Positions 10,930-49,944 are shown, counted from the stretch's first letter. The stretch is 64,000 bases of DNA from Amylibacter sp. (GCA_965261565.1 OZ253460.1:187951-251950); one strand, 5' to 3'. A program made the numbers and translations. The notes: a model not told the origin generated them from the letters alone.

Positions 10930-11260
10930 AGGCAACTAAAATTATAGCGAATGTCAATCCGATACGAACTGGGTAATTAATATCTGTTTAACCAATCAAG
11001 AGCTTTTTGCGGTTATTAGAAGCAATGCTGGCTTCCCACACACAGTTGGCACACCCCACCGCCCTACTGTATCACTATCAGGCGCAAGGTGAAGGTATTC
11101 CACTCTTGGAAACCACGCGAAAGGATAAGTTAGTTGCGTACAGATACGTACCCAACAAAGATCTTATAGCTTTTTCTTTTTTTATTGCTTAGATTGAAAG
11201 ATTGCTAAATTTAGTAACCCAAATTAAGCTAAACTCTAAGTAGAAAATAATGAGGTTGGT

Positions 11261-11620
11261 ATGAAAAATTTATCTATGTCAATTATGGCTGTTTTCGCAC
11301 TTAGTGCGTGTAGTCTCGCATCCAACAGCGGTAGTGATAAAGTCTTAGGGACAGAAAGCCATCCGGTTGTAAAAATAAAAGAGAAATCCGAAGCGGCTGC
11401 GATATTGAGTGGCGGTGGGTTCATTATTCCTAGCCAGTGTTACAAAGAAGATGCTGATGCAGATTGCATTAGAAACTATCAGCGGGATTTAGAAAGAGCT
11501 CTTAGAGACTTTGACCCTAGAGCACTTCCGCCTGAGTGTAAAAACCCCGGGGCACCAAAAGGATGCTTTGATTACGGATTAGAAGGCCCACTTATATACC
11601 CGTTACCTGACAATAATTAA
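11261..11620 (+). CDS. small Cys-rich lipoprotein, function unknown
   Basis: 119 aa. Lipobox LSAC follows a hydrophobic N-terminus, with four further Cys. A GAGG is upstream of the ATG. The gene sits in visibly AT-rich DNA. Confidence 0.55.
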   Translation: MKNLSMSIMAVFALSACSLASNSGSDKVLGTESHPVVKIKEKSEAAAILSGGGFIIPSQCYKEDADADCIRNYQRDLERALRDFDPRALPPECKNPGAPKGCFDYGLEGPLIYPLPDNN

Positions 11621-11844
11621 TTCTTAAGTTTACAATTTACGATGGTAGTTTTTGCAATGCATATATTATTGTGCCAATGTCCTATAGCCTTGAAAAACAT
11701 CTTGTTGCAAATATCCTTATCATTTACTGAAAATGTTTGTTGTGGGTCACGTTATAATTTCCCCCCATATGTCCTCCAAAAGCACAAGGGCTACATATAT
11801 ATTCTGGGATTATTTTCGTAACTAGCTGTTTTTAATTATAAACT

Positions 11845-11862
11845 TTGGCAGGGGCTGAGAGA
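11845..11862. repeat. att core copy 1: exact 18-bp duplicate of the tRNA-Trp 3' end (TTGGCAGGGGCTGAGAGA on + strand)
   Basis: Identical to 12896-12913 and 14973-14990; the latter is part of the intact tRNA. Confidence 0.9.
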
Positions 11863-12012
11863 AACCACTACTTCGAAGAAAGTCATCGAAACCACCGCCC
11901 GATCCCCCACTCCGGGGCAGTTTTTGGGGCCTTTCGGGGTTGGCTGGACAGATGATCCGGGCGGGTGCCGTGGGTGCCAGTGGGTGAGGTCAGGGTGTGG
12001 GTGTGTCAACGG
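11863..12012. repeat. Arm A, copy 1 (~150 bp)
   Basis: Aligns end to end with 12914-13065, about 88% identical by hand alignment. Both copies sit immediately right of a core. Confidence 0.85.
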
Positions 12013-12093
12013 CTGTTTAGAGCTCATATTGACGTTCTATCATTTTTAATACCTACTTAAGTTCATTGAAAAATAGATCGCAGGAGGCACTCG

Positions 12094-12609
12094 ATGGGCG
12101 CGATAGAAGGTCTGCCGTTATTACTAACTGCGGCTGAATCAACAGCGCGGAAGTTCGACGAGAGCGTATCTGAACTACAAAAGCTAATGGAAGAACATGG
12201 CGGGCAAACTGTTTTTGTAAATGGTCTGCGAGTTGCGACCGTTCAGATTGAGATTGCCGTTGTTGGTGTCTTTTCTCTCTTCGAGGCACGGATGCAACAG
12301 CACATCCCAAGCGGTTCGTTCTTTAAAGGGGTTAAGTCTCACTTAATTGACGTGGGTCATCCCAAACTCGCGAATGATGTCTGGCATTATTACTTGGCGG
12401 TGAACGTGCTAAAACACGGGCTGGGTTCAAGTTACGATGAGTTGTGCGCGATCACTGACCTACCATTCGAAGTGAAACAACCAGGCGAGTATTTTTTTAA
12501 TGAGGGCGATATTGCAGAACCTGAAGGCCTGATAAACGTCACTCAGGCGGGTTTCTTTGAAGGGCTCATTCAAACACTAAATCAAACATACTTATCCCTT
12601 GAGGGCTGA
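12094..12609 (+). CDS. hypothetical protein (cassette 1 cargo), no family recognised
   Basis: 171-aa ORF with an AGGAGG RBS 5-6 nt upstream of the ATG. It is the only long ORF in the unit, and I recognise no motif in it. Confidence 0.6.
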   Translation: MGAIEGLPLLLTAAESTARKFDESVSELQKLMEEHGGQTVFVNGLRVATVQIEIAVVGVFSLFEARMQQHIPSGSFFKGVKSHLIDVGHPKLANDVWHYYLAVNVLKHGLGSSYDELCAITDLPFEVKQPGEYFFNEGDIAEPEGLINVTQAGFFEGLIQTLNQTYLSLEG

Positions 12610-12691
12610 TGGATAGTTTTGGATGGAGGACTGCTTTGTCCACACAGCTGTCCTTCAATACAGAAGTGGATAGTAGTAACAACTGTTCTTC

Positions 12692-12895
12692 TTCCCTAGC
12701 TCTTACCCATTACTAGTACCTAACCCCCTAGTCCCCTTATCCCTATCACATGCAAAGAGGCACCAAGACCTTTACTGAGTGACGCTACAGGGTGATAATC
12801 TAGTTGTCGGATATCGGGGCAATTTCCGGGGCAGTTTCGGGCCCAGGGTCACAGCTAGCTCCAAGCAATCAACACTGTACTATCCGGTAAGAACC
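12692..12895. repeat. Arm B, copy 1 (~204 bp)
   Basis: Aligns with 14770-14972, about 96% identical by hand. Both copies sit immediately left of a core. Confidence 0.9.
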
Positions 12896-12913
12896 TTGGC
12901 AGGGGCTGAGAGA
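12896..12913. repeat. att core copy 2
   Basis: TTGGCAGGGGCTGAGAGA, exact. Confidence 0.9.
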
Positions 12914-13065
12914 AACCCACTACTGCGAAGAAGTCTATCGAAACCACCGCCCGATCCCGCGCTCCGGGGCAGTTTTTGGGGCCTTTCGGGACTGGTTGGG
13001 CAGACGATCCGGGCGGGTGTTGCGGGTGCCAGGGGGTGAGGTCAGGGTGTGGGGTGTGTCAACGG
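12914..13065. repeat. Arm A, copy 2 (~152 bp)
   Basis: See arm A copy 1. It contains CCGGGGCAGTTT, an internal inverted repeat and G-tracts. Confidence 0.85.
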
Positions 13066-13340
13066 AGCGACAGCGGAGTGACTAGGAAGTGGAGTGGTTG
13101 TGGCGGTGTGGCGTGGGTGGTTAGGGCGTATTCTTTGACCATACAGGATGACAAGTGAATTTTGGCGAGGGGGGCGGTCAAATTTGACCATCGGTGCCTC
13201 ATGATCGCCTCATCGCGCTTAGCTTATAATTCTACCAGACTTTCACAAACCAGACGGTTTTGCCGGAAAATTGTGTTTTCTGGATCTCCGGGTTTTCAAC
13301 AGAATAAACCCCTAGCGGATATTCACTCGTAACACTTTTA

Positions 13341-13369
13341 TTGACAGCAACCTGAAACGCAAACATATT
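13341..13369 (+). promoter_or_regulatory. candidate sigma70-type promoter for the cassette 2 methyltransferase
   Basis: TTGACA (13341-13346), 17-nt spacer, then CATATT (13364-13369), about 110 nt upstream of ATG 13477. Confidence 0.35.
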
Positions 13370-13476
13370 AGAAACGGAATGCTGTCACTCGTTGACTTTG
13401 AATGGCAACAAAAAATGAACAAGCAAGGCGTCTAGGAAACTAGGGGCTATTCAAAACAAAATAGGAGTTGTTACGC

Positions 13477-14154
13477 ATGTCAGCCATTAGAAAATTTGCA
13501 CGTTCCGTTCTGCCCGAACGTGTTGTTGAATCTGTATTTGTCGCCCGTGCTCGAGCCGAACATGCTGCAAACCTGACCAAAGATCTGAAGCTTGATCAAT
13601 CGCTTTTGGACTCGGCGCAGTTGTTGTCGGATCGGATCGAGATGCTGAAACGTATGCCCAAAGGTGGCGTCGTGGCCGAGATCGGTGTCGCTCAGGGAAA
13701 GTTCTCACAGCTAATTCTGGAGCATTGTGAGCCATCCAAGCTGATCCTGATTGACCCGTGGGACCGCGAGGATATCCGCTATTCCGAAGAAAGCTATCTG
13801 GCGATCCAAAAGAACATGGCTGACGAGATCACTGCCGGCCAAGTCGAATTACGACGTGGGTATTCTTACGATGCGATCCCCGGCATTGACGCGGATTCCG
13901 TCGACTGGGTCTACATTGACGCCGCTCATGACTATCAATCGGTCAAAGATGACTTGGCGATGTGTGCACGTATTGTGAAACATGACGGGATGCTAGCGGG
14001 GCACGATTACATTAAATGGGTGTCCCCAACTTCACGCTACGGTGTTTTGGAAGCCGTGAATGAGTTTTCTGCAGAGACACATTCCCCATTTGTTTTCCTG
14101 ACAAATCAGTTAGACAAACATGACAGCTTTGCGCTACGTAACAATAAGCTCTAG
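13477..14154 (+). CDS. class I SAM-dependent methyltransferase (Methyltransf_24-like)
   Basis: VAEIGVAQG (motif I), LIDPWD, YIDAAHDY and AGHDY. An AGGAG RBS lies about 10 nt upstream of ATG 13477. The tracked ORF starts at TTG 13468. Confidence 0.8.
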   Translation: MSAIRKFARSVLPERVVESVFVARARAEHAANLTKDLKLDQSLLDSAQLLSDRIEMLKRMPKGGVVAEIGVAQGKFSQLILEHCEPSKLILIDPWDREDIRYSEESYLAIQKNMADEITAGQVELRRGYSYDAIPGIDADSVDWVYIDAAHDYQSVKDDLAMCARIVKHDGMLAGHDYIKWVSPTSRYGVLEAVNEFSAETHSPFVFLTNQLDKHDSFALRNNKL

Positions 14155-14670
14155 CAGCCTCGAGACGCGTCAAGTTTGAACGGGCTGTGTCACCAGAATT
14201 GCGCCGCCGATAGGCTTAAAGCGGCCCAAATCCGCTCCGGAAATTCAGCTAGAGTTAGACTTTTCTGGTGGGGATGGGTTGGATCGAGAGAGGTTTCATG
14301 CATGTCATGGTGCGGCATGCTACTGGAAGTCATCACGGCTGGGTAGAGCTGATCTCTTTTCATCAACAGAGTTTTCATGGAAAACACTTGAAAAATTAGT
14401 CATATGTGTTTTCTTATAAGACTTATTATGTTAACGAGCGATTTTCTACTGTCGTGCGTCCCAAGGGATAATTTGGAGTTACGGAGCTATCTTGAGATAA
14501 AAAGCCCACAGGGGGAGCGTATTATAGATCACATGAACGGGGGCGCATCAACTCTTGATAATTTGGAATCATTTTAAAATGCCCTATCCACTTGCCTAAA
14601 ATACTGAGGCTGTTTGTTGCCAACATAACTTGATCATTTTTTCTTGAATTGCGCAAACTCTAAAACAACC

Positions 14671-14769
14671 CCAACAAAAAAAGAGCAGACCCCCATCCCG
14701 AAAGCCCCACCACCGTCTAACTAGATTCAGGGTAGAGATAGGGCTAGGGATAAGAAGAGGATATCTCTA
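14671..14769 (-). repeat. Inverted arm-A-like module inside cassette 2, abutting arm B
   Basis: The reverse complement of 14671-14745 aligns with 4140-4215 at about 70-75% by hand, including the GGGGCTTTCGGG-type motif and a terminal T-run. Confidence 0.45.
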
Positions 14770-14972
14770 TTCCCTAGCTCTTACCCATTACTAGTACCTA
14801 ACCCCCACTCCCTTTATCCCTATCCCATGCAAAGAGGCACCAAGACCTTTACTGAGTGACGCTACAGGGTGATAATCTAGTTGTCGGATATCGGGGCAAT
14901 TTCCGGGGCAGTTTCGGGCCCAGGGTCACGGCTAGCTCCAAGCAATCAACACTGTACTATCCGGTAAACACC
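14770..14972. repeat. Arm B, copy 2
   Basis: See arm B copy 1. Confidence 0.9.
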
Positions 14973-14973
14973 T

Positions 14974-15049
14974 TGGCAGGGGCTGAGAGACTCGAACTCA
15001 CGACCCTCGGTTTTGGAGACCGATGCTCTACCAACTGAGCTAAACCCCT
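14974..15049 (-). tRNA. trnW: tRNA-Trp (anticodon CCA)
   Basis: 76 nt on the minus strand: AGGGGTT-TA-GCTC-AGTTGGTA-GAGC-A-TCGGT-CTCCAAA-ACCGA-GGGTC-GTGAG-TTCGAGT-CTCTC-AGCCCCT-G-CCA. The cloverleaf folds with one U-U in the T stem, and CCA is encoded. Confidence 0.95.
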
Positions 15050-49718: not shown

Positions 49719-49754
49719 TTACCGGATAAGATACACCCATGGCGACCCAATCAC

Positions 49755-49858
49755 TTGCTTCCTACGCCAGTATAAACTGGGTCAGGTTCAAAGGGTCGCG
49801 TCACTGCACATCGTTGTGCGGTCAGCCTCTCAGTTCCCAAAGCGGAACCCCCCTGCGT
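49755..49858 (-). ncRNA. TPP (THI-box) riboswitch
   Basis: The minus strand reads ...GGGGTTCCGCTTTGGGAACTGAGAGG...ACCCTTTGAACCTGACCCAGTTTATACTGGCGTAGGAAGC, matching the THI-element consensus. It lies directly upstream of thiC. Confidence 0.88.
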
Positions 49859-49944
49859 AATGCTTGGGTAGAATACTCGATCAGTGGTGTCAATTGAAAC
49901 CAAAGTGTTTTGTTATTGTTTAAATGCTCATGGATTTTATTGTG

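Follow-up and report, generated by a model that had tools for sequence, protein, structure and literature searches.

A tandem pair of integrase-less single-gene units at the 3' end of tRNA-Trp in an Amylibacter genome, probably a small accretion array

A 64,000-nt stretch of DNA from Amylibacter sp. (GCA_965261565.1, OZ253460.1:187951-251950), referred to below as the window, contains two short units placed one after the other at the 3' end of a tRNA-Trp gene. The units are delimited by the 18-nt core TTGGCAGGGGCTGAGAGA, of which three exact copies are present in the window, starting at positions 11845, 12896 and 14973. This count was unchanged when two mismatches were allowed, relaxing the search to four or fewer mismatches added a single unrelated site (2079), and the number expected by chance from 100 shuffles was zero. 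Core 3 (14973-14990) comprises the final 17 nt, plus one base, of an intact tRNA-Trp gene with anticodon CCA (14974-15049, minus strand), which was called by ARAGORN, matches the Rfam tRNA family RF00005 with 67 bits and would be the integration target. Core 1 (11845-11862) and core 2 (12896-12913) are 18-nt partial copies of the same tRNA 3' end, distal and middle in the array, respectively.

Each core is accompanied by long arms that recur in the array. Arm A, of ~150 bp, lies to the right of cores 1 and 2 (A1, 11863-12012; A2, 12914-13065; both plus strand, with a GC content of 62% and 64.5%), and its two copies are identical at 137/153 positions (89.5%). Arm B, of ~204 bp, lies to the left of cores 2 and 3 (B1, 12692-12895; B2, 14770-14972; both plus strand), with 197/204 identical positions (96.6%). 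The resulting order is flank, core 1, A1-gene 1-B1, core 2, A2-gene 2-B2 and core 3 with the tRNA, so that unit 1 measures 1051 bp and unit 2 measures 2077 bp from core start to core start. The junction of flank, core 1 and A1 is of the attR type, that of B2 with core 3 and the tRNA is of the attL type, and B1-core 2-A2 (12692-13065) forms a contiguous attP-like junction in which A1 and B1 would represent the P'-type and P-type att arms of unit 1. Both units thus retain their cores and both arms, with attL and attR kept. The original prediction, made from the sequence of the window, had described three exact cores with the third in tRNA-Trp and this same succession of arms and genes; the arm alignments confirmed the layout, and all of its coordinates were correct.

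A single cargo gene is found in each unit, and no Pfam recombinase, relaxase or type IV secretion system domain was identified in either one. Gene 1 (12094-12609, plus strand) encodes a protein of 171 aa with an all-helical predicted model and no assigned function. Gene 2 (13477-14154, plus strand) encodes a class I S-adenosylmethionine-dependent methyltransferase of 225 aa, preceded by what is left of the 3' part of an IS3-family insertion sequence (IS), consisting of a transposase C-terminus and an IS end (13348-13459, plus strand; identified by blastn). Both genes read from arm A toward arm B, an agreement based on n = 2 only. Outside the arms and cores, no similarity was detectable between the interiors of the two units.

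Each of the four arm copies contains the pattern YGGGGC-N5-7-YGGGGC once, always on the plus strand, and the 64 kb hold no further occurrence. It is found as CGGGGCAGTTTTTGGGGC at 11913-11930 in A1, at 12965-12982 in A2, as CGGGGCAATTTCCGGGGC at 12815-12832 in B1 and at 14892-14909 in B2. The motif starts 81 nt to the left of the core in arm B and 51 nt to the right of the core in arm A. Arms A and B have a 27-nt segment containing this motif in common, with a local alignment score of 27 compared to 15.3 ± 2.1 for shuffles (maximum 24). These tandem repeats, located 50-80 nt from the core, are likely candidates for arm-type protein-binding sites. Two further candidate arms were rejected. An inverted 23-nt near-copy (19/23) of the arm-B motif at 14223-14245, 70 nt downstream of gene 2, scored 26 against a shuffle maximum of 27, and local alignment of the left flank as a diverged third B arm did not exceed the shuffle level.

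Related loci were collected by anchoring on the cytochrome P450 gene beside the tRNA, which yielded 80 metagenome loci (L034-L113). The closest match in genome collections is a Neptunicoccus metagenome-assembled genome (L021) with a P450 that is 83% identical, and the host appears to be a roseobacter (Rhodobacteraceae) near Neptunicoccus. To the right of tRNA-Trp, synteny (P450, M48 peptidase, DUF898, ParC and onward) is present in all close relatives, whereas to the left no genes are common to the window and its close relatives. In this clade, the 3' end of tRNA-Trp thus marks the border of a variable region.

One metagenome contig, L034, whose P450 is 90% identical, has the left flank of the window joined straight to an intact tRNA-Trp. 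The AT-rich chromosomal flank (11762-11844; GC content of 32% over 11621-11844) is homologous by blastn to the L034 sequence abutting the tRNA, with window positions 11762-11862 matching L034 4405-4505 at 82% over 101 nt and the alignment ending in the core. Compared with L034, the window holds an additional 3.1 kb, placed precisely where flank and tRNA meet, and the core is duplicated. Because L034 joins the flank directly to the tRNA, the 3.1 kb constitutes an insertion at the very position of the core. Such an insertion is the classical mark of site-specific integration and points to this process here. This empty-site comparison is made with one contig, from a related species and not the same one, and it demonstrates presence/absence variation at the core boundary, the lack of which the original prediction had listed as refuting. 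A falsely duplicated unit or a chimeric join is a negligible alternative: repeats of 150-220 bp can mislead short-read assemblers, but the arm copies differ from each other in both arms, the interiors are unrelated, the source was assembled as a 3.74-Mb contig and the flank junction is matched by L034 as an independent metagenome contig.

The arms themselves are tied to this tRNA. Sequence similar to the core-proximal 85-125 nt of arm B directly follows tRNA-Trp in L021 (76-78% identity) and L040, and more weakly in L036, and in the relatives such B-like arms were found solely in this position. The tandem motif is preserved in L021 and can be made out in L036 and L040. A search of the GTDB representative genomes with the motif that the two arms share gave 23 matches, of which 22 are chance single matches in unrelated phyla and the remaining one, in L021, is real and lies beside tRNA-Trp. 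The arm family is linked to tRNA-Trp and is not the generic repeat whose possible existence the original prediction had raised against itself.

These findings bear on the proposal that the arms are not att arms and are instead a structured RNA, a regulatory module or a dispersed repeat, comparable to repetitive extragenic palindromes (REP) or miniature inverted-repeat transposable elements (MITE), that happens to lie near a tRNA. Their conserved non-coding sequence and the consensus promoter-like hexamers in arm B would suit this proposal; promoter-like hexamers were also identified upstream of gene 1 and gene 2. The association of B-like arms with tRNA-Trp in relatives argues against it, and the physical properties of the arms do so as well. 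Both arms, on both strands, folded worse than dinucleotide shuffles (z +1.5 to +2.9) and therefore look like duplex attP arms and not like RNA or integron attC sites. Rfam returned the tRNA as its sole match over the locus and no family for the arms, and comparison of arm A with the reverse complement of arm B remained at chance level, showing no terminal inverted repeats. In the window, arm copies were found solely at the cores, with no further copy of A or B, and a REP or MITE was rejected on these grounds. Since the motif, folding, Rfam and inverted-repeat results all argue against RNA, attC-like hairpins and a MITE, a nature other than that of att arms is considered highly improbable.

The cores, the arms and L034 as the equivalent of an empty site would be explained by two site-specific integrations of B-core-A circles, and this part of the original prediction is supported. 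Each unit would have arrived as a circle with an attP composed of arm B, the 18-nt core and arm A, and an integrase, presumably of the tyrosine type, would have recombined the attP core with the identical tRNA 3' end, regenerating the tRNA and leaving a partial tRNA copy at the far end. Unit 1, with gene 1, would have entered first. The second circle, carrying the methyltransferase gene, would then have integrated at the core next to the tRNA, displacing unit 1 outward. Pairwise recombination among the three direct cores could release unit 1, unit 2 or both as circles, although such excision would need the cognate integrase in trans or from an incoming complete relative. A relative of this kind could sit elsewhere in the genome, or could arrive and integrate alongside.

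The same tandem arrangement could in principle have been produced locally, if one ancestral A-X-B insertion had been doubled by unequal homologous recombination between cores or arms and the cargo of one copy had later been replaced. The tandem direct repeats of ~370 bp are good substrates for unequal crossing-over, and the high identity of the arm B copies would be in keeping with a duplication. However, the arm A copies differ by 10.5% and the arm B copies by 3.4%, and owing to this unequal divergence two related but distinct incoming elements fit better. The lack of detectable similarity between the interiors would additionally demand that a whole interior had been swapped exactly between the arm boundaries, an extra event without explanation. 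Local duplication is accordingly regarded as improbable.

Gene 1 was taken for an orphan in the original prediction, a description that did not hold, as 46 homologs with 33-81% identity were identified in other sequences. Their hosts are Roseobacter, Ruegeria, Rhodovulum, Roseovarius, Thioclava and Zavarzinia in addition to many metagenome contigs, with a scattered occurrence in Rhodobacteraceae, and four IMG/VR contigs encode relatives at 38-39% identity. No match to gene 1 was obtained in Pfam, PHROG or PADLOC. An AlphaFold model based on 38 homologs is all-helical and confident (predicted local distance difference test, pLDDT, of 89). The best matches of this model in the PDB are HEPN toxins of the HepT/SO_3166 type, with E values of 0.09-0.8 and template modelling (TM) scores of 0.4-0.5, and no R-x4-6-H motif is evident in the protein. 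The predicted likeness to HEPN proteins is taken as a lead only and not as an assignment. Homologs in L001, L002, L030 and L042 often have genes for HNH or McrA-type endonucleases, GmrSD_C and PIN-TPR in their vicinity. These neighbours, combined with the weak structural likeness of the model to HEPN proteins, hint at an association of the family with defence islands.

Relatives of gene 1 do not travel with the arms; this possibility was rejected on finding homologs in ten other contigs, in varied contexts and without arms. In Ruegeria sp. Ofav3-42 (L005 8384-15393), a homolog lies directly after a tyrosine integrase within a 6.9-kb element that has tRNA-Arg(cct) at one end and, at the other, a 17-nt repeat of the 3' end of that tRNA. 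That element also contains a serine-recombinase C-terminal fragment, a 700-aa protein with a T7_gp14 domain and an RNase H. In Rhodovulum, a gene-1 relative is found at one margin of an island, ~10 kb from an integrase of that island; if this margin is the distal end of an integrative element, one internal deletion would convert it into something like unit 1. Other relatives occur as lone genes in unrelated chromosomal contexts.

The assignment of gene 2 to Methyltransf_24 proposed in the original prediction is borne out by Pfam (E 1.6e-16), and PHROGs gives a methyltransferase family only. Translation likely starts at the ATG at 13477, giving 225 aa, as in the homolog P0048. The nearest homolog is 58-62% identical and the one genomic context retrieved is ordinary, and a search for gene-2 relatives in similar cassettes was therefore closed as negative.

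Upstream of gene 2, the segment 13348-13459 has blastn matches in 90 alphaproteobacterial plasmid records. Among the best 10 of these 90 matches, identity is 77-81% with E values down to 2e-19; four of the 10 fall under an annotated "IS3 family transposase" and six are unannotated. The segment is also 78% identical to the start of contig L034, where the end of an open reading frame (ORF) matches rve_2 (E 0.0025), and it stops 17 nt before the start codon of gene 2. An IS had entered unit 2, and later most of it was lost by deletion, together with whatever adjoined it. The remnant is a sign of decay in this unit. The other spacers of unit 2 (13066-13347 and 14155-14769) gave no plasmid match and no Pfam domain. 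Separately, an IS3 OrfA-like fragment was observed to the left of tRNA-Trp in L037.

The same tRNA-Trp is occupied by other DNA in the relatives. In L035 (968-4346; P450 84% identical), a tyrosine integrase lies 134 nt from the same tRNA-Trp core and is identified in Pfam by Phage_integrase (E 2.4e-31) and Int_N. Beyond it are two small ORFs and a 304-aa protein with weak Rep_trans and Phage_CRI matches, and the contig stops before the far end of the element. The L035 arm is unrelated in sequence to arm B and has a tandem hexamer of its own, TTGCAC x2, at 84 nt from the core. Elements with a tyrosine integrase thus make use of the same core in this clade; the arm layout is similar and the arm specificity different.

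In L036, the B-like arm is preceded by a gene for a 124-aa HNH endonuclease and a 73-aa ORF, both of which read toward the tRNA and are oriented like the cargo of the window, and there is no integrase between the HNH gene and the arm. L042 has an HNH fragment 122 nt from the tRNA and, further left, a gene-1 relative of 39% identity and another methyltransferase. Contigs L021 and L040 break off within the B-like arm, and L039 stops right at the tRNA 3' end. These breaks fit repeated or population-variable sequence and are suggestive only. Many contigs with more distant P450 relatives begin 0.9-1.2 kb upstream of the P450 gene, and such fixed-position starts suggest a recurrent assembly break, due to a repeat or to population variability, in those lineages too.

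A single-gene unit without an integrase is also found in a more distant member of the Rhodobacteraceae (L093 579-1899). It is 1245 bp in length, encodes a 258-aa secreted protein with no Pfam match, and is bounded by an intact tRNA-Trp and a 35-nt partial copy that is 86% identical. Neither of its ends is related to arm A or arm B, and the repeat is decayed, so that the unit looks like a fossil.

The original prediction had reported that no recombinase is encoded in the units or elsewhere in the 64 kb. A phmmer comparison of every window ORF of >=80 aa with the L035 and Ruegeria integrases produced no match at E<=10, and no recombinase domain was found in small ORFs or in frame translations of the spacers. 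The approximately 65 non-overlapping ORFs inventoried in the window are housekeeping genes, part of them checked by Pfam and the remainder recognised from their N-terminal sequences. By phmmer, Pfam and the ORF inventory, no recombinase was detected in either unit or in the window, serine recombinases having been covered without a dedicated profile search. The possibility that arm B hides the 5' end of a deleted integrase was rejected because stop codons are present in all minus-strand frames.

Taken together, the locus is probably a small accretion array in which two integrase-less mini-islands of one family, resembling cis-mobilizable elements (CIMEs), stand in tandem at the 3' end of tRNA-Trp. 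Most likely, both units descend by reduction from larger elements that did bear an integrase, and have been kept for their cargo. Given the IS3 remnant and the gene-1 relatives on an integrase-bearing tRNA element, a CIME-like reduced origin is at least as likely as a cassette system.

Under the latter explanation, the units would be purpose-built cassettes, each made up of cargo and a complete B-core-A attP and at no time equipped with an integrase. Their insertion, excision and reshuffling would be the routine work of a tyrosine integrase specific for tRNA-Trp, whose gene would lie on a helper element or in the chromosome, as in an integron-like or hitchhiker platform. Several observations would be accommodated well by such cassettes: both units are minimal and co-oriented with complete arms, unit 1 is free of debris, the B-like arm of L036 abuts a different cargo with no intervening integrase, L093 contributes another single-gene unit bounded by a partial tRNA-Trp copy, and contigs of L021, L039 and L040 break in arm B or at the core. 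Against this, no helper integrase and no free attP were found in the collections searched, one complete array is known, and unit 2 bears an IS3 scar. Moreover, the gene-1 relatives are ordinary cargo of an integrase-bearing element or lone genes without arms, the L093 unit has the unrelated ends and decayed repeat of a fossil, and the arms are not attC-like. The integron-like behaviour suggested in the original prediction was not recovered, as two of three integron hallmarks failed to appear, there being no adjacent integrase and no attC-like arms; an undescribed gene-shuffling system, also put forward there, was unsupported by the tests made and is judged unlikely.

An origin by reduction also has points that weigh against it. 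Unit 1 is compact, with 82 nt on each side of gene 1 and no pseudogene debris, and arm B contains no integrase remnant, all of which would be expected equally of a clean deletion and of a unit that had been without an integrase from the outset. L036 is the sole relative in which the inner neighbour of the arm is visible, and that neighbour is non-integrase cargo, so that an integrase-less condition could be the norm in the family. The cognate enzyme is hypothetical: an integrase-bearing element with a contiguous B-core-A, the kind of parent that the original prediction proposed to look for, was found neither with five DNA patterns in IMG/VR, nor with an arm-B pattern in the JGI metagenomes, nor in GTDB representative genomes, nor by blastn of B-core-A against phage and plasmid collections, nor with the 86-aa spurious ORF spanning B-core-A as a query against a protein database. 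Since these collections contain no close relatives even of the cargo genes, the absence of a parent or helper from them carries little weight. On balance, reduction is favoured as the probable origin over purpose-built cassettes, which are an unlikely one.

The array is neighboured by the cytochrome P450 gene on one side and by a small lipoprotein or PHP-domain gene on the other. The region between the PHP-domain gene and core 1 (10930-11844) has a GC content of 38.7%, the window as a whole having 49%. A 119-aa lipoprotein-like ORF within it matches no family, and only the final ~85 nt of the region are common to L034. The region may be an older, eroded island layer without a surviving distal tRNA repeat. 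An imperfect palindrome centred on GATATC (CTAGGGATAAGAAGAG-GATATC-TCTATTCCCTAG) at 14725-14797 straddles the inner edge of arm B2. It is not present in unit 1, and it gave a sub-threshold Rfam match to MIR408 that is meaningless. Elsewhere in the window, a thiamine pyrophosphate (TPP) riboswitch (49742-49864, minus strand; Rfam RF00059, 57 bits) lies upstream of a ThiC-like gene and is an ordinary feature.

The bulk of the DNA in the tRNA-linked flexible islands of marine bacteria belongs to no recognisable mobile element, and its route of arrival is an open question (10.1101/2020.12.28.424599). The present locus is an unusually clean case, in which single cargo genes lie in complete att arms at one tRNA and a relative has kept the empty site. 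If the units are still serviced by an integrase in trans, they would represent the smallest self-contained currency of island growth, and att cassettes served in this way could explain the build-up of cargo-only DNA in marine tRNA-linked islands. Integrase-free att cassettes, if real, would amount to an integron-like exchange platform operating on lambda-type duplex attP arms. If the units are only fossils, the locus documents a path of accretion and reduction that has hardly been described in roseobacters. As it stands, the locus is a small, clean example of a known route of island growth and not yet a new gene-shuffling system; the pattern is familiar to specialists, and its value is that of a compact, testable substrate for cargo-only island growth.

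Integrase-less elements flanked by att sites, which the original prediction had cited as an established concept, are indeed on record, and both their tandem stacking and CIMEs have been described (PMC5704250, 10.1101/2020.12.28.424599, 10.1101/336396). CIMEs of the ICESt1/ICESt3 family in Streptococcus keep attL and attR and have lost the genes for integration and transfer; they stack in tandem at the 3' end of a conserved gene with an att repeat between them, and their movement needs the recombinase of a related complete element (PMC5704250). The units of the window resemble CIMEs in keeping their att sites, lacking mobility genes and standing in tandem. Known CIMEs, however, are larger decayed integrative and conjugative elements (ICEs) or integrative and mobilizable elements (IMEs) of Firmicutes, usually beside a functional or decayed ICE, whereas the present units measure 1-2 kb, hold a single gene each and belong to an alphaproteobacterium, and the array includes no partner that bears an integrase. 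Their descent from an ICE or IME is putative.

In the tycheposon arrays of Prochlorococcus, successive integrations at a tRNA 3' end are separated by partial tRNAs alone and older elements are pushed into the island, where degenerate remnants and stray partial tRNAs are common (10.1101/2020.12.28.424599). A marine host, a tRNA 3'-end target and tandem copies with partial tRNAs between them are features of the window as well. In contrast to its units, tycheposons are defined by a tyrosine or large serine recombinase of their own, mostly accompanied by a replication module, and the host and the tRNA differ. The pseudo-SCC elements in composite islands of the staphylococcal cassette chromosome (SCC) are recombinase-less, bounded by direct repeats and arranged in tandem at the 3' end of one conserved gene (10.1101/336396). 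They provide a parallel as stacked cassettes that are moved only by the recombinases of a neighbouring or incoming element, but their target is rlmH and not a tRNA, the enzymes are serine recombinases (Ccr) acting on short att sites without long arms, and the cassettes range from kilobases to tens of kilobases in Firmicutes hosts.

Integrons share with the window small, mostly single-gene units that accumulate at one site and depend on an integrase which they do not encode themselves; integron cassettes are in addition co-oriented and mostly promoterless, whereas in the window co-orientation concerns two genes only and promoter-like hexamers lie upstream of both. The window has no adjacent intI/attI/Pc platform, and its sites are duplex-type attP arms of ~370 bp in total around a tRNA core, whereas integron attC sites are folded single-stranded hairpins. 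Classical tRNA islands and lambda-type prophages likewise have a core that is identical to the end of the tRNA gene and flanked by long, asymmetric arms in which motifs recur; they too regenerate the tRNA, and for them as well a relative can show the empty site. They differ in that the repeats in the window enclose no integrase, excisionase or other mobility gene. Phage satellites such as phage-inducible chromosomal islands (PICIs) and the similar PICMIs differ further, as the units have no integrase, regulator, primase or replication genes, and no capsid or packaging interference genes. The locus is accordingly filed with the integrase-less, att-bounded kind of element, in which it is notable for the minimal size of its units, their complete arms and the lineage of their host.

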